DNA of 64,000 nt, from NCBI GenBank assembly GCA_964604825.1, contig CAZSAL010000009.1:2479-66478 (forward strand). Direction: 5' to 3'. Each line of letters starts with the position of its first letter. Position 1 is the first letter of the stretch. Positions 5,101 to 39,542 of the stretch are shown piece by piece. The notes below the pieces were generated by a model. That model had not been told where the DNA came from. It made no database searches and was given only the letters and a program-made list of their open reading frames with translations. Made by a program: the position numbers and the translations under genes. The stretch comes from an uncultured Elusimicrobia bacterium. GTDB taxonomy: Bacteria; Elusimicrobiota; Elusimicrobia; 2-01-FULL-59-12.

Positions 5101-5122
5101 AGACGGTATTATATACAAACTC

Positions 5123-5214
5123 CTTCCCCCCTTGAGGGGGAAGGTGGGGATGGGGGGGTATTGTACGACGAAGATGGACCCCCCACCTCAGTCCTCCCCC
5201 TCAAGGGGGGAGGG
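5123..5214. repeat. Hairpin/G-tract/C-tract/hairpin composite repeat, copy R1 (pdxH-serS spacer)
   Basis: CCTTCCCCC-cttga-GGGGGAAGG, then TGGGGATGGGGGGG, a ~20-nt spacer, CCCCCCACCTCAGT, then CCTCCCCC-tcaa-GGGGGGAGG. Confidence 0.5.
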
Positions 5215-5221
5215 AACTTAT

Positions 5222-5914
5222 TTACGGATAAAGCCGGGTGATGTCCCAGCGGTTTTGAATACGGGTATAAAGGAATCGGTCGTGAAGGCGGTTGGGGCGA
5301 AGCTGCCAGAACTCCATGCGCTCCGGCCTGACCCGGAAGCCGGTCCAGAATTCCGGCCGCGGCACGTTTTTTCCTTCAAAGCGCCGGCGAAACTCCTCAA
5401 CGCGCCCGTCAAGAATGGAACGGTCCGCCAGGGGGCTCGACTGCATGGAGGCCCAGGCGCCCAACTGGCTGAGGCGCGGCCGCGTGCGGAAATAAGCGTC
5501 CGCTTCGGCGTCAGTCACCTGGCTTGCGCTCCCCTGAATGCGTATCTGCCGCCAGAGTTTTTCCCAGTAAAACGTCAGGCATACCTGCGGCCGCGCTTTG
5601 AGCGCATTCCCTTTTATGGAATTGATGTTGGTGTAGAAAATGAAGCCTTCCTGGCTGAACCCCTTGAGCAGGACCATGCGCGCGTCAGGAAAGCCCTGAT
5701 CGTCGATCGTGGACAGGCACATGGTTTCCGGCTGCCGCATGCCGCCGGACTTTTTGGCTTTTTTATACCAGTCCGCAAACTGTTCAATGGGGTCATCTTT
5801 CATGTCTTCCCGCGCCAGCGGCTCCATAAAATAACCGGCGCAGATCAAGGCCCTGTAGCCGATCTTGTAGACAAGGCTGGTCCAATGCCCGGGTTTAGGA
5901 GGAGGAAGATCCAT
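5222..5914 (-). CDS. pdxH: Pyridoxamine 5'-phosphate oxidase
   Basis: FYTNINSIKG, WTGFRVRPERMEFWQ...RLHDRF.Y C-terminal signature typical of PdxH; ~215 aa. Confidence 0.85.
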   Translation of the reverse strand: MDLPPPKPGHWTSLVYKIGYRALICAGYFMEPLAREDMKDDPIEQFADWYKKAKKSGGMRQPETMCLSTIDDQGFPDARMVLLKGFSQEGFIFYTNINSIKGNALKARPQVCLTFYWEKLWRQIRIQGSASQVTDAEADAYFRTRPRLSQLGAWASMQSSPLADRSILDGRVEEFRRRFEGKNVPRPEFWTGFRVRPERMEFWQLRPNRLHDRFLYTRIQNRWDITRLYP

Positions 5915-6005
5915 GGAGTCTTATTATAGGGCAAAAGGAAAAGGGAAAAACGATGAAGCGCTTTATAACAAGGTGATTTCCTTGTTTTGCCCTTTGCCTT
6001 TTACC
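5914..6005. repeat. Purine-arm/pyrimidine-arm imperfect palindrome (signal-peptide cassette family), copy 1, intergenic pdxH/batE
   Basis: GGCAAAAGGAAAAGGGAAAAACGA...CCTTGTTTTGCCCTTTGCCTTTTACCC; the arms are reverse complements (GGCAAAAGG / CCTTTTGCC). Confidence 0.5.
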
Positions 6006-6018
6006 CGTTGCCCTGCAG

Positions 6019-6876
6019 TTAAATGGTTTCGACAGATGAGTCCGGAATCCAGCCCTTTAGCCCTTCGCTGGGAACGCCGATTTCCAGCCAGCCGCTGACT
6101 GGTTCCTGCTCGTCCAGAAGCAGAACCCGGCGTCCTTCCGGAATATTAAAGTTTGCGGGGGAAGACAAATTCGGACCGCTGCGCACTTCCGCCGCAGGTA
6201 CGATGATCACCGCTTCTTTCTGCTGCAAGGCTTCGATGCGCAGGCCGCACCAGGTCCCGGACAGGGCCAGCGCTGCGAACAGGGCAAAGGCCGCTTCTGC
6301 CGGGATTGTACGGCGTCCCAGAAAGAACAGGCCGCAGGTCGACACGAGTACTATCAGTAACGCGGAAACCAGAAGCGTTAGAAGATCCAGCGGAACTGCG
6401 TAATAGATTCGCCAGCAGAGAGAAGCCAGCGCGCCGCCGGGAAGAAGCGGATCCCCGGCTTTTGTCAGCGCCAGGTTCAGATTGAACACGACGTCAGAAT
6501 TCCCTGGATTCAAGCGGAAAGCCCTGTCGTATGCCGCAACCGCTTTACCCAGGCTCCCCGCTTTGTAGCAGGCATTACCAAGGTTGTATTGGACTACCCA
6601 GTTCTGCAGGCCTCCGGTAGCGGCTGATTCATACGCGCCCGCAGCCTGTAGATACTGCCCCTCGGCATAGGCTTTGTTCCCCTGATCAAAAGAATCCTGA
6701 GGAGAAGCAAAAGACAGGGAAAAGGGAAAAAGTAAAAGGTAAAAAAGAAGGAAGGATACCTTAATGATGTCATCCCCGAATTGTGTTATCGGGGATCCCT
6801 GAATCAAGGAATCCTTGTTAGATGGATTCCCGCTTACTACTTGCGGGAATGACGGAAAGCGGCTCACTCTTCCCAT
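6019..6876 (-). CDS. batE: BatE-like TPR + SH3-type domain protein (aerotolerance operon); N-terminal region interrupted in-frame by a repeat element
   Basis: TPR-like region (YAEGQYLQAAGAYESA..., NLGNACYKAGSLGKAVAAYDRAFRLNPGN), TM segment, C-terminal SH3b-like (EVRSGPNLSSPANFNIPEGRRVLLLDEQEPVSGWLEIGV). ATG at 6876 overlaps the batD stop in the motif ATGGGAAGAGTGA (translational coupling). Codons ~12-39 are encoded by the GTCAT repeat copy at 6768-6853. Confidence 0.65.
   Translation of the reverse strand: MGRVSRFPSFPQVVSGNPSNKDSLIQGSPITQFGDDIIKVSFLLFYLLLFPFSLSFASPQDSFDQGNKAYAEGQYLQAAGAYESAATGGLQNWVVQYNLGNACYKAGSLGKAVAAYDRAFRLNPGNSDVVFNLNLALTKAGDPLLPGGALASLCWRIYYAVPLDLLTLLVSALLIVLVSTCGLFFLGRRTIPAEAAFALFAALALSGTWCGLRIEALQQKEAVIIVPAAEVRSGPNLSSPANFNIPEGRRVLLLDEQEPVSGWLEIGVPSEGLKGWIPDSSVETI
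6768..6853. mobile_element. GTCAT/ATGAC structured repeat, copy A (MITE-like; in-frame inside batE 5' coding region)
   Basis: GTCATCCCCGA-attgtgtta-TCGGGGATCC...GGATTCCCGC-ttactactt-GCGGGAATGAC: terminal inverted repeats plus two internal stem-loops. Shares its architecture with copies B-E. Confidence 0.6.
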
Positions 6877-8705
6877 TTAATTTCCTTTTCCAGCGTGTCG
6901 ATCAATGTGCGAATGTCCTTTTGCGCCTTTGCAATATCTTCGGGACTTACCTGCGCAGGGGCAAACTGGAACAGGTCCAGGGTATTCCAGAGTTCTTCAA
7001 CTTTTTGTTTATCCGTATCGTGTAATTTTCTTTCGCTCATCAACTGAACCGAGTCTTTCAAAGCCAGTCCCGTATCGTTTAAACCCAGTTTGGCGGCGAG
7101 ATAACCGCGCAGAGCGTCGCCCATTTCGCGGGCCGCTTCTTTTACCTGCGACCGGGAAGCGAACGCTTCTGCGGCCTGCAGCCGCTTCAAGGCGCGGCCC
7201 CGCGCCGCGCGGAAACGCACCAGGCGCGGATTCGAAAAAAACAGCCTGCGGTAAAGCTGGAGAAGGCCTGCTCCCAGCATGAACAAAAAGGCAAGAGCAT
7301 TTAGAATATACAGCCAGGCGCTGCGATAAAGGGGAATTCTTTTCGGACGCAGTCCTGAGGAAGTTTTGATGTAGCGGATATCCTGGCCAAGCACGCGAAT
7401 GCCAGGAGCTTCCGGCGCGGAAAATCCCGGGCCCGGAGTCTGCGGACCGGCAGGCCCCGGTTTGACGGAGACGGAAAGAGGCTGGGAATGCAGCGTCCGG
7501 TAAGAGCCAGCTTCCGGATCGAAATATGAATATGAAACCGGCGGCACGGTGAGATCGCCGGAAGTCGTGGGGATCAGGACGATCTTGAACACTTTCGATC
7601 CCTGAACCAGGTAGTCTTTTTTATCGATATTGACCGCGGCGTTGGAAGCGAAAGTGCGGAAATTGTTGAAGGCCGGCCAGACAACGTCCGGCAAGGATTT
7701 TATATTACCCTTTCCCGCGATCGAAACGGACAGTTCCACGGGCTGGCCGACCGTAGTGGACCGCTTGTCCAGGCCGGCTGACAGCGCGTATTGGCCTACC
7801 GCTCCGCTGAAGCCCGCCGGCTTCGGTTCCGGCAGAGGCTTTACCTGAATCGTGATCGGATTGGTATTCAGCATTTTTTCCTGGCCGCCCCCGAAGAAGT
7901 TCGCAAACAAGTCTCCGCTGAAAGGATCGGACGCGAGATTCTGAATCTGCACGCGCAGCCCGGCGGGACCGATTTTCGCCCTGCCCGGAGTCGTGGGAAA
8001 CAAAGCCGTGCGGAGTTCGGTGACGTTAAACTGGGTTCCGCGGGCGCTTGCCGTATAGTTTTTCTGAGGAGGCAGATCTTCCGTCCAGAAACCGGAGGTA
8101 TCCGGCGGCTGGTACTGAGGGTTGCTCAGAAGCGGAACGCGGTTGTACACGCGGAAAGAAAGCGTGACGGGCTCGCCTACGTAGGCAGTGGATTTATCCA
8201 CCGTAGTGGTGACGAAAATGCCCGGAGCTCCGGAACCGCCGGGGGAAGCGCGCGCCGGAGCGGGCGCTGCGGACGCCTGGGCTTTCACGACTTCCAGGGA
8301 CATGGGCTGCGTTGCGGCGCTCTGGCCTCCGGCCTGGACCTGGATCGGAGGTATGGTAAAGCGGCCAACCTGTTTAGGCGAGAGCATGTAGTTGTAGGTC
8401 ACATTCGCGCTGGTCTGGCCGTTGACCCAGCTGAAGCTTTGCGATGTCCCGGCGTTATAGATCTGGAAATCCGGAAGCCCGGGGAGCTGCGGCGCAGGCA
8501 GATTGGAGGAATTTCCCGAAATGGTCACGCTTAAGCGCGCCTGCTCATTTAACGCCACCTGCTGCCGGTCGAGGCTGGCCGTGATTTGCACCTCCGCAAA
8601 ACAACAGGTTAAAGGTAAAAGTGAAAAGGGCAAAACGAGGTATAACCTTTTAAAAAGGCCTGCCAAACTTTTACCCTTTACCCTTTGCCCTTTTACCTGC
8701 CTCAT
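6864..8705 (-). CDS. batD: BatD-like protein
   Basis: 613 aa, N-terminal signal peptide (KGKSLAGLFKRLYLVLPFSLLPLTCCFA), long beta-rich ectodomain, C-terminal TM (AWLYILNALAFLFMLGAGLL) plus cytoplasmic tail. The architecture and operon position are typical of BatD. Confidence 0.7.
   Translation of the reverse strand: MRQVKGQRVKGKSLAGLFKRLYLVLPFSLLPLTCCFAEVQITASLDRQQVALNEQARLSVTISGNSSNLPAPQLPGLPDFQIYNAGTSQSFSWVNGQTSANVTYNYMLSPKQVGRFTIPPIQVQAGGQSAATQPMSLEVVKAQASAAPAPARASPGGSGAPGIFVTTTVDKSTAYVGEPVTLSFRVYNRVPLLSNPQYQPPDTSGFWTEDLPPQKNYTASARGTQFNVTELRTALFPTTPGRAKIGPAGLRVQIQNLASDPFSGDLFANFFGGGQEKMLNTNPITIQVKPLPEPKPAGFSGAVGQYALSAGLDKRSTTVGQPVELSVSIAGKGNIKSLPDVVWPAFNNFRTFASNAAVNIDKKDYLVQGSKVFKIVLIPTTSGDLTVPPVSYSYFDPEAGSYRTLHSQPLSVSVKPGPAGPQTPGPGFSAPEAPGIRVLGQDIRYIKTSSGLRPKRIPLYRSAWLYILNALAFLFMLGAGLLQLYRRLFFSNPRLVRFRAARGRALKRLQAAEAFASRSQVKEAAREMGDALRGYLAAKLGLNDTGLALKDSVQLMSERKLHDTDKQKVEELWNTLDLFQFAPAQVSPEDIAKAQKDIRTLIDTLEKEIKWEE
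8622..8705. repeat. Same palindrome family, copy 2, encoding the BatD signal peptide
   Basis: AAAGGTAAAAGTGAAAAGGGCAAAACGAGG-tataaCCTTTTAAAAAGGC-...CTTTTACCCTTTACCCTTTGCCCTTTTACC. Confidence 0.5.
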
Positions 8706-8708
8706 TGA

Positions 8709-9365
8709 TTACCAGTCTTCATCCGGATGCGGTACTCCGCCTTGCGGTTGTTTCTGTCTCGGTTTTTTCTGTTCGCCCGCGGCGATCGCCGCCAATAACC
8801 GCTGGGCATCCTCTTTGCTCATCTGAGGCTTCTGCTGATTTTGTTTGGCCTGCTGATTTTTGCTCCCGCCGGATTTGGGATTCTTGCATTTCGGCGGATT
8901 CTTCTGAAATCTCATCGCCATACCCAGATTATACTTGGCGTCCTCGTCCGCGGGATTGGCGCGCAGGCTTTCCTTATACGACTCAATGGCTTCCGCCCAC
9001 TTCTGCTCGCGGATAAAGGAATTGCCCTTGTTATACAAAGCCGCGGCACGCAGCGGCTTGAAGGCGGATTGCGCGGCCTGGTCAAACTCGGATTCGGCGC
9101 GGCTGAACTGCCCCATCTGGTACGCCGCGTCGCCTGCGTTGAAGTGGAGAATGCTGGAATTAGGCGCGTCGATCAGCGCGTCATCGTACTTTTTCAGCGC
9201 CCGCTCATAATTCCCGTTCCAGAAATCGCGGTTGGCATATTTAAGCGAAGCCGCACATACTGAAGAAGGCAAAAGGCAAAGGGCAAAGGGCAAAACGAGG
9301 AAGTGCCTTTTAAAAAGGCAAACCTTGTTTTTCCCTTTAACCTTTTCCCTTTTCCCTGTCGTCAT
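8709..9365 (-). CDS. batC: BatC-like TPR protein
   Basis: Signal peptide then TPR repeats (FNAGDAAYQMGQFSRAESEFDQAAQ..., ALYNKGNSFIREQKWAEAIESYKESLRANP). The track start at 9431 overlaps batB; ATG at 9365 (MTTGKREKVKGK...) overlaps the batB stop and is preferred. Confidence 0.7.
   Translation of the reverse strand: MTTGKREKVKGKNKVCLFKRHFLVLPFALCLLPSSVCAASLKYANRDFWNGNYERALKKYDDALIDAPNSSILHFNAGDAAYQMGQFSRAESEFDQAAQSAFKPLRAAALYNKGNSFIREQKWAEAIESYKESLRANPADEDAKYNLGMAMRFQKNPPKCKNPKSGGSKNQQAKQNQQKPQMSKEDAQRLLAAIAAGEQKKPRQKQPQGGVPHPDEDW
9268..9360. repeat. Same palindrome family, copy 3, encoding the BatC signal peptide
   Basis: GGCAAAAGGCAAAGGGCAAAGGGCAAAACGAGG-aagtgCCTTTTAAAAAGGC-aaaCCTTGTTTTTCCCTTTAACCTTTTCCCTTTTCCC; shares a ~30-nt core (GGGCAAAACGAGG...CCTTTTAAAAAGGC) with copy 2. 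Confidence 0.5.
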
Positions 9366-10366
9366 TCTCGTTTCCCTTCCGGGATTGCCAGGCTTATCAG
9401 TAAACAGAATAGAGCAATTCCCAGCGGCCACTGGTACCGGTTTTCCAGACGGTTGAAGAGGCGGGACTTTTGATCTCCGCGCTTTAAATTATCAAGAGCC
9501 TTGCCGATCTGATCGGCCTCGTCTCCCGAAAGATTGGCGCGGTAATACTGCCCGCCGGTTTCCTGAGCAATGCGGGAAAGAGTTGTTTCGTCCATCCGGC
9601 TTAATACGACCTGCCCGTTCTTGTCGCGTTTATAGCCGCTGCGGTGGCCCTGTTCATCGAATATCGGGATAGGATCTCCCTGTGGGCTTCCCACGCCGAT
9701 GGTGAATATTTTCATGCCCAGCTTTGCCGCTTCTTTTGCCGCCCCTATGGGATCGCTTTTGTGGTCCTCCCCATCCGTAAGGAGAATCAGCACGCGCGCC
9801 CCGCCTTCACCCGCCTTCAGGCCTTTGGCCGCGGTGCGTATGGCATCGCCAATGACCGTTCCCGGGATCGGCACGGCGCCCACGTCAATGGCGTCCAGCG
9901 CTTCCTGAGCGGCGGTGTTATCTATGGTAAGAGGGCATTCCACATATGCCTGGCCCGCAAAGGCGATAATGCCCAGGCGGTCGCCCGCCAGCCGGTCGAT
10001 CAGCTGTCCTAAAATCAGTTTGGCATTCGCCATCCGGTTGGGCTTGAGATCCTCGGCCTGCATGGACAGGGAACAATCCACTGCGATAAAAACGTCCAGG
10101 CCCTTTTGTTTGAATTCGACAAGGCGCGCCCCGATTAAAGGTCCGGCCAGAGCGATAGTCGCACTTAAGAGCCCCACGATCTGAAGGAAAGCGGACCAAT
10201 GCCTGCGGCGCGAGAGACCGGCCGGGAACAGCCGTCTGACGGTGGCCTCCTGACCCATAACGCCGACGCCTTGCCTGCGCCAGCGATAGGTCCAGAAAAT
10301 AATGACAGTCAATAACGCAGGTACTACGAAGAAAGCAAACATCGATGGATATGCGACGTAGTTCAT
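9362..10366 (-). CDS. batB: BatB-like von Willebrand factor A domain protein
   Basis: Two N-terminal TM helices then a vWA domain (DVFIAVDCSLSM...LGIIAFAGQAYVECPLT...ILLTDGEDH). Confidence 0.75.
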   Translation of the reverse strand: MNYVAYPSMFAFFVVPALLTVIIFWTYRWRRQGVGVMGQEATVRRLFPAGLSRRRHWSAFLQIVGLLSATIALAGPLIGARLVEFKQKGLDVFIAVDCSLSMQAEDLKPNRMANAKLILGQLIDRLAGDRLGIIAFAGQAYVECPLTIDNTAAQEALDAIDVGAVPIPGTVIGDAIRTAAKGLKAGEGGARVLILLTDGEDHKSDPIGAAKEAAKLGMKIFTIGVGSPQGDPIPIFDEQGHRSGYKRDKNGQVVLSRMDETTLSRIAQETGGQYYRANLSGDEADQIGKALDNLKRGDQKSRLFNRLENRYQWPLGIALFCLLISLAIPEGKRE

Positions 10367-10371
10367 ATGTT

Positions 10372-10456
10372 GTCGCCCCGGAAATTCGTTATCCGGGGCC
10401 CATACATAAAGGTCTTTTTTGATGGATCCCGGCTTACGGCCTGCCGGGAAGACGAC
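10372..10456. mobile_element. GTCAT-family structured repeat, copy B (GTCG variant; between batA and batB)
   Basis: GTCGCCCCGG-aaattcgttat-CCGGGGCCCAT...GGATCCCGGC-ttacggcct-GCCGGGAAGACGAC; near-identical to the reverse complement of copy C. Confidence 0.55.
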
Positions 10457-11468: not shown

Positions 11469-11498
11469 AAGTTAAAAGATCCTAATCAAGATAAAACA

Positions 11499-11585
11499 GT
11501 CGTCGTCCCGAAGGTCGTAAGCCGGGACCCATCAAAAAAGGCCTTCATAAATGGGCCCCGGACAACGGATTTCCGGGGCGACGAC
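11499..11585. mobile_element. GTCAT-family structured repeat, copy C (inverted orientation; between DUF4381 gene and batA)
   Basis: GTCGTCGTCCCGAAGGTCGTAAGCCGGGACCCATCAAAAAAGGCCTTCATAAATGGGCCCCGGACAACGGATTTCCGGGGCGACGAC. Confidence 0.55.
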
Positions 11586-24682: not shown

Positions 24683-24772
24683 TCTCCCCTTGTGGGAGAG
24701 GGTGGGGGTGAGGGGAGGTGTTGATCTCATGATAGTCCCCCTATCCTAGCCTTCCCCCGCAAGGGGGGAAGG
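24679..24772. repeat. Hairpin/G-tract/C-tract/hairpin composite repeat, copy R2 (ATP-grasp / aminotransferase junction)
   Basis: CCCTCTCCC-cttgt-GGGAGAGGG, then TGGGGGTGAGGGGAGG, a spacer, TCCCCCTATCCTAG, then CCTTCCCCC-gcaa-GGGGGGAAGG. Same order and arm sequences as R1. Confidence 0.5.
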
Positions 24773-25615
24773 AATTTTAAACAGGCAGTTGTTTTCGTAG
24801 GCATAGTATGTTTCCTTTAGGTAACGAGCTATAGCGCTGGCCGCCGCGCCGCGGCACGGAGCGAAAGAGGGCCAGTCGTTGAGGTCAATCAGAGTAATTT
24901 TGCCATCGGACGAAATGATGGCGTCGCCGCCGTAAATGGCGATATCAAGCGCCGCCGCAGCCTGTTCCGCTATGCGCTGCAGTTCCTGTTCGACAAAAGG
25001 GTAGCCTTCGCATTCTTTGGGATAGTAAGGCCAGAACAGACCGTCTCCGCGGACGGCATAAAATTTGACCTCATCTCCTGCGCAGTGCGCCTGGAGCACG
25101 GCCTTCTTCAATCCCCGGGAGGAAAACTGTTTAAGCGCGGCAGGCAGCAGCGGAGCTTTTTCTATGCGCAGCACGTCTCCCGCCTGCGTGGCATGCACGT
25201 CGTCGCGCTTAAGCCATGCGCCGTCATTCTCAAAAAAAGGCTCCAGCAGTTTAAGATCTTCAGATCCATCGGTCTTCACTTCCACGCTTTTGGGAAAGGC
25301 AAGATGGTTTTCAAGCATCAGCCGGCAAAGGAAGTCGCGGTAGGTGGCGCGCGAAGCGGCGGGATCGTTGCAGATCAGCGCGCCGGAACTTTGCCATTCC
25401 GTAAGCTCCGCTATCGCATCAGGTCCCTGGCACATGGAAAAAATCAGGGAGGCGTCCTTCCAGCAGTTCCGGGCTTCATCAATTGTCGTAAGCTTCAGGG
25501 GAATGTTTTCCCTTTCCAGGGCCATGCCTACCAGCCGCAGTATTTTGGCGTCATTCGAATTGTGGCGGCCGGGCGAATAAGCAGGTTCGCGATAAATGCC
25601 GAGGAAGGGCTTCAT
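24746..25615 (-). CDS. ATP-grasp-like protein (tentative)
   Basis: The C-terminal block DIAIYGGDAIISSDGKITLIDLNDWPSFA resembles the ATP-grasp Mg/ATP-binding region. The assignment is weak. The last 8 codons are encoded by a hairpin repeat. Confidence 0.35.
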   Translation of the reverse strand: MKPFLGIYREPAYSPGRHNSNDAKILRLVGMALERENIPLKLTTIDEARNCWKDASLIFSMCQGPDAIAELTEWQSSGALICNDPAASRATYRDFLCRLMLENHLAFPKSVEVKTDGSEDLKLLEPFFENDGAWLKRDDVHATQAGDVLRIEKAPLLPAALKQFSSRGLKKAVLQAHCAGDEVKFYAVRGDGLFWPYYPKECEGYPFVEQELQRIAEQAAAALDIAIYGGDAIISSDGKITLIDLNDWPSFAPCRGAAASAIARYLKETYYAYENNCLFKIPSPLAGEG

Positions 25616-34359: not shown

Positions 34360-37300
34360 TTATTGGACGTTAAAGTATTTAGCCTGAGGGTGGTGGACCA
34401 CAATCGCTGATGTGGATTGTTCTGGAACTAGCTGGTATTCTTCGGTAAGGCTGACGCCGATTCTGGAGGGATCAAGCAGTTCAAAAATCAGTTTTTGATC
34501 GGCAAGGTTCGGGCAGGCGGGATAGCCGAATGAGTAGCGGCTGCCGCGGTATTTCTGCTGAAACCATTCCCTGATTTGCGGAGCGTCTTCATTTTCAATA
34601 TGGAGTTCCTCCCGTATGCGCCGGTGCCAGTATTCCGCAAGCGCCTCGGCTGTTTCCACGCTCAGCCCGTGCAGATAAAGATAATCCCTGTAGGCGTTTT
34701 CCTTGAAGAGCTTGTGTGCTTCATCTGAGGCCTTGGTGCCGACTGTCACAAGGAATGTCCCAAAAATATCGATTTTTCCCGATGATTTTGAAAAATAAAA
34801 ATCGGAAATACATCTTCTGGGAGCCGAGGACTGCCTGGGGAATTTAAACCTCACCCATTCTGTCTTTTGATCTTCCTTGTAAACGATCAGGTCGTTTCCG
34901 TCAGATTGGCAGGGGAAATAGCCGTAAACCACCTGCGGCACGAGCAGCTGTTCCTTGAGGCAGTAATCTTTCCATTTCTGAAAAAGCGGCTGGACCGTTT
35001 CCTTCAGAGTCTTGTTGTATCTCTCCAGCGGTGTCTGGCCGCGAATGAATCCCCAGCGTACTTTAAGCAGAGCAGTCTCGTTAATGAAGGAAAATACATC
35101 TTTCAATGGAATCCCGCGCGCTACCCTGCTTCCCCAGAAAGGAGGTTTGGGGATGGAGATGTCGCGGCGGACAGTCTTCCCCTCACCCACGCCCTCTCCC
35201 GCCCCGCCACTACGGCTTAGTGGGTCTGCCAACGACTCAGTGGCGGAAAGGGGAAAAGGAGTTTTTGAAGTGTGACCGGAGCCACCCCGGACTTCGTAGA
35301 TCGTGGCCTTTTTCTCGATAGATGGATCAGTCAGTTCTTCCATTATGCGCAGGCCTTCGAACGCGTCATGGCCGTAAAATACGTAACCTTTGTATAAATC
35401 GCGCAGTTCCTGCTCGACAAAACGCCGGGTCAGCGCAGCTCCGCCTAGGAGAACCGGCGTTTTAACTCCGCGCCGGTTCATCTCTTCCAGATTTTCCTTC
35501 ATGACTGCGGTCGATTTCACAAGCAGGCCGGACATGCCGATGACGTCGGCTTTGTGCTCCTCGGCGGCCTTCAGGATATCTTCGATCGGCATCTTGATGC
35601 CAAGATTAATGACCTTGTAGCCGTTGTTCGTCATAATAATGTCCACAAGGTTTTTGCCGATATCATGCACATCGCCTTTGACTGTAGCCAGGACAATCCG
35701 TCCTCTGTGCCGACCTGCATCGGCTTTTGGCAGGAAAGGTTCGAGGCAGAGGACTGCGGCTTTCATGGTTTCCGCAGACTGCAGAACAAACGGCAGCTGC
35801 ATCTGACCGGAACCAAAGAGGTCTCCGACCACGCGCATGCCGTCAAGAAGGATGGTATTGATAATATCCAGAGGATCGTGCGTCTTAAGCGCCTCGGTAA
35901 GCAGAAGGTCGAGGCCCTGTTTGTTGCCGTCGACGATCCGGCTCTTGAGCCGCTCTTCTATAGTCTTCGGTTCTTCCTTTTTGGCGACGGTTATCTCTGA
36001 TGCTTCAGCATAGTGCGCCATGAGTTCAGTAAGCGGATCAAACGTTTTGGACGTCTTTCCGGCAGGTCGTAAGCCGGGATCCATGGATCCCCCGCTGACA
36101 CCCGCGGGGGATGACGAAAAAGTCCGCTCATCGAATATCAACTGCCGTGCCAGCTCCCGGCCCTTCTCATCGATCTTGTAGAGCGGCAAAATTTTCCGGG
36201 CATTGATGATGGCCGCGTCCAGTCCGGCTTCGATGGCGTAATGCATAAAAACGGAATTCAGCGCCTGCCGCACCTGCGGCGCCAGGCCGAAAGATATGTT
36301 TGATACGCCCAAAACCGTAGAAACGCCGGGCAGCTCTTTTTTGATCAGCCGGATCGCTTCGATTGTTTCCATGCCTGCTTTACGGAATTCCTCATCCCCT
36401 GATCCAAGAGTGAAGGTCAGAGCGTCAAAGAAGAGATCCTCCGGTCGGAGCCCGAATTTATTTACCGCCAGATCATGAATGCGCCTGGCAATGGCCAGCT
36501 TCCTGTCCCGCGTTTTGGCCATGCCTTTTTCATCAATGGTCAAAGCCACAAGCGCCGCCCCATAGGTTTTGGCCAGCGGGCAGATCCTGCGCATCCGTTC
36601 TTCGCCGTCTTCCAAATTAATGGAATTAATGACGCAACGGCCGCCCGCATGCTTCAGGGCGGCTTCGATCACCGGCGCCTCGGTGGAGTCGATCATGAAC
36701 GGCGTACGGACCTGAAGCACCATGCGGCTCATGCATGCGTTCATGTCCTGTGCTTCGTCGCGTCCGACATAGGCGGTGCAGAGATCAAGGATATGGGCGC
36801 CCTCATTGGATTCTTCTTTAGCCATGCCGGTGAGAGCGTCATAGTCATTTTTGGCCAGAAGGTCGCGGAATTTTTTCGAGCCATTTGCGTTAATCCGCTC
36901 GCCGATAATTAGAGGTTTTGGTTCCTGCCTGAAAGGGACCTGGATATAAAGACTGGAACAGGCGGGAATTTTTTCAACGGTGCGGGCAACAGGCGCCTGA
37001 TTCTCCAGGGTCTTCACTACAGCTGCCAGATGCGCGGGCGTTGTGCCGCAGCATCCACCGACGATATTGACTCCGAAGCGCGTCACGAAGTCTTTGAGGT
37101 GGCCTGCCAGCTGATCCGGAGTCAGTTTATAAACGGCCCTGCCTCCGACATTTTCCGGAAGGCCGGCGTTAGGCAGTACCGAAATATACCTGGGCCACTG
37201 CTGCGAAAGGGTGCGCACATGTTCGGACATCTCCTGCGGGCCTGTGGCGCAGTTCATGCCCAGGGAAAAAATCGGATACGGTTCCAGAGCTGTGATCACC

Positions 37301-37922
37301 GCCGCGATTTCCGTGCCCAACAGTAGCGTTCCCGTGGTTTCCACCGTGACCTGGACCATAACAGGGATGTCTTTTTTAGCGGCAGACAGGGCGTCGAGCG
37401 ATCCGGTAATTGCGGCTTTGATCTGAAGAAGGTCCTGGCAGGTTTCTATCAGCAGGAAGTCCGCGCCTCCTTCAATCAATCCCGCGGCCTGTTCAATGTA
37501 ATTGCGGCGCAGGATGTCGAAAGTCGTGTGGCCAAGAGACGGCAGTTTGGTTCCCGGCCCCATGGATCCCGCGACAAAACGCGGGTTGTCTTTGGTGGAA
37601 AATTGCCGCGCGACTTTGCGCGCCAGGCGCGCGGCTTTTACATTGAATTCATGGACGCGTTCTTCCAGCCCGTACTCGGCGAAAACGATCCGGTTGGCGC
37701 CAAAGGAGTTGGTTTCCACTGCCTGGCAGCCGGCCTGCAAAAAAGAGGCATGCAGATCCTCAATCCATTCCGGATGGGTTTCCAGAAGGATTTCCGTGCA
37801 GCCTTCCTTCCCGGCGTAATCGTCGATCGTGGGGTTGCGCAACTGGAGGTTTGTTCCCATGGCCCCATCAAAGACAAGGATGCGCTCATGCAGCAGGTTT
37901 TCAATTTCTACTCGACTCATAG
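34360..37922 (-). CDS. metH: Cobalamin-dependent methionine synthase
   Basis: Hcy-binding (ERILVFDGAMGT), pterin-binding, B12-binding (GDVHDIGKNLV) and AdoMet-activation domains in order; ~1186 aa. ATG at 37922 (MSRVEIEN...) is preferred. The track ATG at 37956 lies inside a GTCAT repeat. Confidence 0.9.
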
Positions 37923-37951
37923 GAAGAATTATAAGTGTTATCGTTCTTTGT

Positions 37952-38032
37952 GTCATTCCCGAGATTCATAATCGGGAATCCATCATAGAGGCCTTTATGA
38001 AGGGATCCCCGCTTACTGCGTGCGGGGATGAC
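37952..38032. mobile_element. GTCAT-family structured repeat, copy D (between pcm and metH)
   Basis: GTCATTCCCGAGATTCATAATCGGGAATCCATCATAGAGGCCTTTATGAAGGGATCCCCGCTTACTGCGTGCGGGGATGAC. Confidence 0.6.
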
Positions 38033-38034
38033 GG

Positions 38035-38679: not shown

Positions 38680-38780
38680 AGTTTCCTCTAATCCGTCGCC
38701 CCGGCGATTCGTAGGCCGGGGTCTATCAGCAAGAACTCCTTTTTATGGGTCCCGGCCTGAGACCTGCCGGGACGACGTCT

Positions 38781-39362: not shown

Positions 39363-39384
39363 AAGATCCTCCTTTACTCATATT

Positions 39385-39464
39385 GTCATTCCCGAATTTT
39401 GTTATCGGGAATCCATCGATAAAGGCCTTTTTTAGGGATCCCCGATTAAGACCTCGGGGATGAC
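39385..39464. mobile_element. GTCAT-family structured repeat, copy E (divergent region between trx-like gene and gltX)
   Basis: GTCATTCCCGAATTTTGTTATCGGGAATCCATCGATAAAGGCCTTTTTTAGGGATCCCCGATTAAGACCTCGGGGATGAC. Confidence 0.6.
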
Positions 39465-39542
39465 ACCCATTGTGTATAGGAAAATTTTACCACTTAGACA
39501 CAAATCGGATTTGGTGATGTTCAAATAAGTAAAATAAATATC

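Follow-up and report, generated by a model that had tools for sequence, protein, structure and literature searches.

The DNA described here is a window of 64 kb from an uncultured Elusimicrobia bacterium (assembly GCA_964604825.1, contig CAZSAL010000009.1), in which two gene regions share a family of short structured repeats. The first region is a bat operon, encoded on the minus strand in the order MoxR, DUF58, an unknown gene, BatA, BatB, BatC, BatD and BatE. The second includes metH, which encodes the B12-dependent methionine synthase (34360..37920, minus strand), together with PCMT, an AhpC/redoxin-like gene and gltX. Seven repeat elements were found, with a typical length of about 85 bp; each of them is formed by two inverted hairpins, i.e., 14 hairpin modules in the window. 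Two elements lie in frame within genes, one in batE and the other in metH.

Hairpin doublets in the bat operon and the metH region

The bat operon carries three copies, as stated in the original prediction, which was made from the letters of the window alone and listed five elements. Element A (6768..6854, plus strand) is a doublet in frame in batE (6019..6876, minus strand), a gene encoding a TPR protein of 285 residues. It follows codon 8 approximately and occupies codons 9–37 (approx.), with a left module at 6769–6800, a central mini-hairpin at about 6805–6817, and an inverted right module at 6822–6853. Element B (10371..10455, plus strand) is a doublet located at the batA/batB junction, with the ATG of batB 5 nt past it. 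Element C (11498..11583, minus strand) is a doublet between the unknown gene, of 297 aa, and batA; it is inverted relative to A and B, and it is 85% complementary to element B over 82 nt.

In the metH region, element G (36052..36116, strand not assigned) is a short doublet of 63–65 nt without the central hairpin. It is in frame in metH, within an interdomain linker, and consists of a long-loop module (36053–36084) followed by an inverted module with a 9-bp stem (36084–36115) that resembles the NTS motif of Neisseria. Element D (37951..38033) separates the stop of PCMT from the start of metH, element F (38694..38777) is situated between the stop of the AhpC/redoxin-like gene and the start of PCMT, and element E (39384..39465) lies between the AhpC-like gene and gltX, which are divergent; all three are doublets on the plus strand. 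The five elements listed before (A to E) are present at the positions proposed for them and can be aligned with a mean column identity of 68%. A repeat search added two copies, the full-length one at 38694–38777 and the short one at 36052–36116 that lacks the central part, so that the count of five per 64 kb has to be raised to seven; likewise, the claim that all copies except A are located between genes no longer holds, given that element G is in frame within metH. Since neither the window nor the 10.7 kb of its contigs that lie past its ends showed further copies (L228 and L229, two stretches that are identical to the window where they overlap it and reach past both ends), the family is represented here by seven elements in two clusters, at 6.7–11.6 kb and 36.0–39.5 kb.

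The module is approx. 32 nt long and is composed of (C/T)GTC, a stem of 8 bp (e.g., ATCCCCGA), a loop of 9 nt, the complementary stem, and CC(AT). The two modules of each element are inverted with their heads outward, an arrangement found in all seven elements, and in most of them a 5-bp central hairpin of the AAAGGCCTTT type lies in between. The terminal inverted repeats announced previously are these modules themselves. For the elements as single-stranded DNA (ssDNA), the predicted fold is either a hairpin at each end plus a small one at the centre, or a single long hairpin (z = −2.6 to −4.6). When the 14 modules were aligned, GTC and the C after the stem were invariant columns, as they also were in the alignment of the five original copies. 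The base before GTC is C in nine modules (counting C_R as C) and T in the other five; the stems are of 8 bp, or 9 bp in G_R; the loops have 8–10 nt, and the tail is CCA in most of the modules and CCC in three.

A degenerate pattern of the module, built from the copies, gave 11 matches in the window versus 0.01 expected from dinucleotide-preserving shuffles. A scan that is independent of the sequence, defined as GTC, a perfect 8-bp stem, a loop of 3–13 nt and then C, detected 10 modules versus 0.05 in mononucleotide shuffles. Pairing of the stem is maintained in 94.6% of the cells of the 14-module alignment, with changes on both sides at five of the eight stem pairs, and the covariation score was reached by none of 500 shuffles; when the register of the alignment was slid, the signal collapsed. 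The compensated variation noticed in the original prediction is therefore real, and the same is true for the idea of a structured, MITE/REP-like family (MITE, miniature inverted-repeat transposable element; REP, repetitive extragenic palindrome), given the covarying stems and the non-random number of copies. Stem covariation, in the window and in 114 modules from other genomes, shows that the hairpin is maintained by selection. At gathering thresholds, Rfam matched only a tRNA in the window and none of the elements. The elements are not among the terminator-like sites detected by a scan for intrinsic terminators, and they are devoid of a T-tract. CRISPR-like arrays were considered and rejected; there are none in the window, and the tandem copies present in two other genomes (L017 and L062) are spaced 121–143 nt.

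In-frame copies in batE and metH

The ATG of batE at 6876 overlaps the stop codon of batD and is preceded by AAGGA, a Shine-Dalgarno (SD) sequence; the same start is used in the public annotation (P0001, 285 aa). BatE orthologs are mostly of about 246–252 aa, and several of them pass from ME(R/K)L directly to the hydrophobic region. In an alignment with these orthologs, the BatE of the window shows approx. 29 extra codons before the hydrophobic region, which at the DNA level correspond to a complete hairpin doublet. In L204, a relative that has no insertion at all, batE starts 2 nt past the batD stop. The proposal that copy A is an insertion, placed between a conserved, SD-preceded start that overlaps batD and the hydrophobic region, is supported by the orthologs that lack it. 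It had also been proposed that this copy adds 28 codons without breaking the frame; the frame is indeed kept, but the length from GTC to GAC is 85 nt, i.e., about 28.3 codons. Only one of the six frames is open across the copy, and it is the frame read by BatE. Translation through the insertion is likely, and the predicted peptide across it reads QVVSGNPSNK...QFGDDIIK. An independent in-frame doublet (GTCATCCCCGCGTGTTGTAAGCGGGGATCCAT ... GCGGGAATGAC) is present in another BatE ortholog, P0062 (L227, about 450–600), at a different position; it lies in the membrane-proximal part of the protein and encodes VVSGDPSFAAWIDSRFR...GRGNDK.

The junctions occupied by elements B and C were also compared. 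In relatives (the P0019 contig and L204), the unknown gene and batA, as well as batA and batB, overlap or abut, and for this reason elements B and C are considered lineage-specific insertions that split coupled genes. In L203 the batA/batB gap contains a different repeat at the place where the window has element B. This is a CCTCTCCCAAAGGGAGAGG element, similar to the CCTTCCCCCCTTGAGGGGGAAGG type of repeat, a third family that is present in the window at 5112–5224 and 24731–24777, and in L203 at 5340–5420; the copy at 5112–5224 forms a long hairpin (−34 kcal/mol, z = −5.3).

Apart from the doublets, the bat operon contains a second palindromic family (8606–8706, 9266–9366 and 5926–6022, with a half copy at 6713–6745). 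It is composed of a purine-rich arm of tandem units (GGGTAAA/GGGCAAA/GGGAAAA), a small central hairpin and a complementary pyrimidine-rich arm, and its DNA folds with z = −2.2, −4.8 and −3.5. At batD and batC, a K/G/R-rich n-region is encoded by the purine arm and an F/L/P-rich hydrophobic region by the pyrimidine arm; therefore, the hairpin at these genes encodes the signal peptide or a transmembrane segment. In BatE the purine arm is missing, and the pyrimidine arm follows element A directly. The same coding logic of the arms, with other repeat units, was observed at the batD/batE junction of L203 and in several BatE orthologs.

In MetH, element G falls in the linker that joins the pterin-binding domain to the B12-cap domain, and there it encodes about SSSPAGVSGGSMDPGLRPAGKT. 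Around 35 close homologs (73–79% identity) are devoid of this segment and read FDER(K/R)(P/E)G-FDPLT, while at the same point the MetH of the window reads FDERTFSSSPAGVSGGSMDPGLRPAGKTSKTFDPLT; the predicted peptide across the element is SSSPAGVSGGSMDPGLRPAGK. The window protein is 75–79% identical to the homologs from Elusimicrobia metagenome-assembled genomes (MAGs), with which synteny is shared, and on these grounds the source organism is judged to be Elusimicrobiota-like. An insertion related to that of the window is present at this point in two other lineages, P0123 (L122) and P0139 (L121, from OY969767.1, a closed Elusimicrobia MAG), and P0128 retains a remnant of it. A second doublet was found in the same metH gene of L121 (13207–13279), in the C-terminal part, and it accounts for part of the 1233-aa length of this protein. 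From this doublet and the one in P0062, in-frame capture is recurrent in the clade.

The most unusual result of this study, and a new point, is the conservation of the metH hairpin at synonymous sites. The MetH proteins of the window, L121 and L122 are 78–82% identical, and the third positions of their identical four- and six-fold codons are identical in only 34–47% of the cases, with synonymous sites close to saturation in these three lineages. The module CGTCATCCCCCGCGGGTGTCAGCGGGGGATCC, on the other hand, is identical in 32 of 32 nt with L121 and in 31 of 32 with L122, and the third positions within it are identical in 11 of 11 and 10 of 11 cases, respectively. Between the window and L122 there is also full identity in the core of the second module (GGCTTACGACCTGCCGG), with differences in the spacer and in the outer junctions. 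The loop of the metH module is unlike that of the other copies in the window and of those sampled in L121 and L122, which argues against homogenisation by gene conversion. Either purifying selection acting on the hairpin as DNA or RNA, or the repeated entry of the same variant at the same site, would account for these data. In a neighbour-joining tree of MetH the carriers of the insertion are not monophyletic, in a star-like radiation that is poorly resolved. The metH copy is a rare case of an intragenic REP-like hairpin with synonymous-site conservation over deep divergence, and with it one can test whether DNA structure is under selection within a coding sequence.

The repeats also affect how metH is annotated. 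The terminal ATGAC of element D (GGGAATGAC, 37920–37956) provides the longest metH open reading frame (ORF) with an upstream in-frame ATG. In the public protein, P0122, the start (MSRVEIENLL) lies 12 codons further on, and the ATG of element D is a spurious start. Given such false starts, the inflated ORFs and the stereotyped peptides (SSSPAGVSGGS, VVSGNPS and others like them) that appear in MAG proteomes, annotators should mask these hairpins.

Relationship with described repeats and small GIY-YIG genes

Several features of the family recall repeats that are already described. In Neisseria, dRS3 is part of the 28-nt NTS motif, CGTCATTCCCGCGMAVGCGGGAATCYRG. This motif is recognized by SsnA, a GIY-YIG nuclease of 94 aa that binds it only as ssDNA and cuts a few nucleotides upstream, with no binding to RNA; binding requires the C after the palindrome and cleavage the three nucleotides before it (PMC11893778). 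The motif is often present on both sides of ssn genes (NTS-ssnA-NTS), an arrangement described as 'identical to' that of insertion sequences, and degenerate versions, the Ssn-related motifs (SRM), occur in many phyla (PMC11893778, Chenal et al. 2025, Nat Commun). In addition, Di Nocera et al. (2013) defined the CGTC-tagged REPs, with a stem of 8–9 bp that often starts with AT, a loop of 4–5 nt and a CCA tail. These are mostly dimers, intragenic copies are known, and no RAYT flanked by CGTC repeats was found in that study; they include dRS3 (CGTC-1) and the Rickettsia elements RPE-4 and RPE-6, and were found in five phyla (PMC3733652).

The modules of the window share with NTS/SRM the (C/T)GTC head, the GC-rich palindrome initiated by AT and the C directly after it, so that the positions critical for SsnA (GTC before the palindrome and C after it) are conserved. 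NTS/SRM motifs occur in hundreds of copies clustered around genes, and small GIY-YIG genes are bracketed by hairpins, as was also observed here in uncultured lineages. The differences are a loop of 9 nt on an 8-bp stem versus a loop of about 4 nt, the compact heads-outward doublets with a central mini-hairpin, and the Elusimicrobiota-like host. With the CGTC-tagged REPs they share the CGTC/TGTC tag, the 8–9-bp stem, the CCA tail, the dimer habit, the occasional in-frame copies inside genes and, although no systematic search for one was made here, the lack of a RAYT, and they differ in the long loops (8–10 nt instead of 4–5) and in a distribution over about 20 phyla among the matches listed, versus the five published. 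Judged by these traits, the family is a long-loop variant of the CGTC-REP / dRS3-NTS / SRM class, and the suggestion of an uncharacterised family was incorrect, given that head, stem, tail and dimer habit are those already published (PMC3733652, PMC11893778).

The copies in batE and metH are also reminiscent of the Rickettsia palindromic elements (RPEs), i.e., palindromic repeats inserted in frame in functional protein genes and translated as an extra peptide: in both genes the element lies within the ORF, the frame is kept, and the orthologs lack it. RPEs have 100–150 bp, and they are likened to the window elements by description only; to our knowledge they are confined to Rickettsia. The REPINs and BIMEs of Pseudomonas and E. 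coli are likewise inverted REP doublets that can fold as a single long hairpin, non-autonomous, and intergenic at gene ends. However, they have a GTAG head and depend on a Y1 (HUH) transposase, whereas the elements described here have a GTC head and are associated with GIY-YIG genes.

This association was observed directly at two of the 120 loci listed with a long-loop module. In L039, the end of a gene encoding a 97-aa GIY-YIG protein (PF01541, E = 1.7e-16) adjoins the matched module, whose loop (CGTGTAGTAAG) is similar to the loop of the right arm of copy A (CAAGTAGTAAG); in L103, a frameshifted homolog has the same placement beside its module. GTC hairpins were then sought within 300 nt of the genes for relatives of the L039 protein at 80 metagenome loci. 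A hairpin was present upstream in 63 loci, downstream in 63, and on both sides in 56. Of the 187 flanking hairpins, 124 are no more than about 100 nt away from an end of the gene, in most cases at 3–20 nt, and the 70 closest ones are on the plus strand upstream and on the minus strand downstream, that is, with their heads outward. An NTS match with one mismatch at most was found in 35 of the 80 loci. The doublets of the window have the same heads-outward geometry as these brackets, with the gene absent, and because small GIY-YIG genes are bracketed in this same geometry, the doublets look like MITE-like derivatives of Ssn-type units.

From these data, we consider it probable, with considerable room for doubt, that the elements are non-autonomous MITE-like hairpin pairs of the CGTC-REP/dRS3-NTS/SRM class, of the long-loop kind, derived from Ssn-type hairpin-gene-hairpin units. 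In this mechanism, the hairpins would extrude on ssDNA, and a cognate Ssn-type GIY-YIG nuclease would bind them and cut a few nucleotides 5' of GTC, by analogy with SsnA from Neisseria. The doublets would be a gene-less remnant or derivative of 'hairpin-ssn-hairpin' units, and they may be spread or maintained via the Ssn-type protein. Copies that enter a gene would survive only where they leave the frame open and the protein tolerates the added peptide, as could be the case before the hydrophobic core of BatE and in the interdomain linker of metH; the intergenic copies are at junctions that overlap or abut in relatives.

Several observations weigh against this proposal. That an Ssn nuclease can carry out transposition has only been put forward as a hypothesis (PMC11893778) and was never demonstrated. 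The strict NTS (one mismatch at most) has no match in the window, L121, L122 or L033, and the SRM expression as published, HGTCWYN(0-2)YYVSBRHN(0-5)WNVSBRGN(0-2)RNCYNB, recognizes only two of the 14 modules (6822–6854 and 38001–38033); when its central N run is allowed to reach 7 (+2 nt), four modules match. The mononucleotide shuffles gave 0.4–0.7 matches, and this partial agreement with the SRM expression counts in both directions. The hairpins that flank GIY-YIG genes have mostly 4-nt loops, with long loops in seven of 187. A tblastn search with a GIY-YIG probe gave no match in the window, L121, L122, L228 or L229, and a weak match in L033 turned out to be the N-terminal domain of UvrC. As no small GIY-YIG gene is present in the window and its approx. 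10.7 kb of flanking DNA, the cognate Ssn is still hypothetical for the source genome. Finally, no target-site duplication is evident in the flanks of the seven copies, the relatives being too diverged to show empty sites; in particular, the intergenic DNA of L122 is too diverged to reveal an empty site or a duplication for element D. With neither reconstructed, mobility is deduced from the distribution of the elements, not observed.

The alternative that the elements function primarily as RNA was part of the original prediction; under it, the hairpins would stabilise, process or attenuate the transcripts of the bat and metH regions, or give rise to small RNAs. Elements B, C, D and F are within or between co-oriented genes and hence must be transcribed, their hairpins are stable on folding, and element B, which ends so close to the batB ATG, could occlude the ribosome-binding region; it is also the case that the REPs and BIMEs of E. 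coli stabilise the upstream mRNA. Nevertheless, the elements match no Rfam family, they have no T-tract and were not called as terminator-like, and their orientation with respect to transcription is mixed, with C inverted and E between divergent genes. Moreover, the unpaired GTC head and the C of the tail, which are conserved, are the nucleotides of ssDNA recognition by SsnA, a protein that does not bind RNA (PMC11893778). The corresponding junctions of relatives are devoid of the elements, and hence nothing points to a regulatory role conserved in the bat operon. A mechanism at the DNA level, involving Ssn and ssDNA, is better supported, and a primary function as RNA seems unlikely.

It is still less probable that the hairpins serve above all other mobile DNA, as its landing pads or as sites of recombination, and spread via recombination and not by a mobility of their own, as could be thought from dRS3, a documented target of a phage recombinase (PMC11893778). 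The presence of other repeat families at doublet junctions in a relative (the batA/batB gap of L203) and of modules on putative viral contigs agrees with this role. However, no integrated element is found beside any of the seven copies of the window, the doublets are compact and complete, and a role of this kind accounts for the use of the hairpins but not for their origin. Mobilisation as REPINs by a RAYT, i.e., an IS200/IS605-like Y1 transposase acting as on the classical GTAG REPs, is slightly less probable still: a pair of inverted hairpins that can also form a single long one is indeed the REPIN/BIME geometry, but the head is (C/T)GTC and not GTAG, Di Nocera et al. found no RAYT flanked by CGTC repeats (PMC3733652; no systematic search for a RAYT was made here), and the gene flanked in the related loci is that of a GIY-YIG nuclease. 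The idea that the BatE and MetH segments are ordinary lineage-specific protein sequence, similar at the DNA level by chance, has nothing in its favour beyond the open reading frames and is refuted by the ortholog alignments (the segment is absent from the approx. 35 close metH homologs and from the BatE orthologs), by the complete doublet present in both genes, and by a chance expectation of 0.01 matches per window.

Long-loop modules in other genomes

The distribution of the long-loop module followed by TCCAT was determined with one genome per GTDB species. At least 133 matches were obtained in at least 120 genome stretches, versus about three expected by chance in an estimate that assumes a uniform composition. 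Among the matches listed, about 20 phyla are represented, and these matches include Nitrospirota, Omnitrophota, Desulfobacterota, Ignavibacteria, Bacteroidota, Elusimicrobia, Chloroflexia and Brocadia, as well as Calditrichota, KSB1, Zixibacteria, Nitrospinota, Methylomirabilis, Binatia and Auribacterota. They also include isolates of Nocardia, Colwellia, Vreelandella and Undibacterium, and one Bathyarchaeota MAG that could be due to contamination. The 114 distinct modules of the matches listed show conservation at positions that the search pattern leaves free, with the loop consensus c/a-ATG-y-TTTTA-g/t; in addition, three of the stem pairs covary, with no more than three mismatches. Most of the matches listed have a second, inverted module 5–40 nt downstream, which is often of the canonical short-loop NTS type.

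These results place the repeat in the Ssn/NTS framework and widen the latter beyond cultured Proteobacteria, to include Elusimicrobiota and many candidate phyla; what sets these repeats apart is the long loop of the module and the compact form of the doublets. Modules A_L, A_R and G_R are concrete substrates with which it can be asked whether Ssn nucleases maintain or move the elements. A more far-reaching proposal, which we regard as rather doubtful, would be that the Ssn GIY-YIG proteins and their hairpins constitute a genuine ssDNA mobile-element system, that long-loop doublets not described before have colonised about 20 phyla, and that some intragenic copies in Elusimicrobiota are under purifying selection at the nucleotide level. 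If this were true, the conservation of the metH hairpin would imply a function of the hairpin, for the host or for the element, inside an essential gene.

Long-loop modules also occur in sequences of viral databases. In IMG/VR, 22 putative viral contig stretches (L205–L226) carry the module; some of them have five modules each, and up to eight are present on the 39-kb contig UViG_3300028837_002970. The carriers could be real phages, prophage borders or misclassified cellular DNA.

Tandem arrays of modules were observed in an Ignavibacteria MAG (L017, 513–790, period of 123 nt), a Chloroflexia MAG (L062, 6206–6501, period of 121–143 nt) and an Ectothiorhodospiraceae MAG (L099, 3278–3445, period of 68 nt). 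These arrays are of the cluster type (BIME/NIME-like), unlike the isolated doublets of the window. In a closed Elusimicrobia genome (L033, 1075–1350), three short-loop NTS-like hairpins of the GTCACCCCGGCGGAAGCCGGGGTC type are clustered, with no GIY-YIG ORF between them; short- and long-loop forms therefore coexist in this lineage. Lastly, in L054, L078, L106 and L046 the long-loop modules lie within open frames of 1,025 to 2,666 codons, some of them as long as the locus, and the frame of L046 is an ORF of Nocardia similar to non-ribosomal peptide synthetases. These long frames suggest that in-frame intragenic copies also exist in other phyla.

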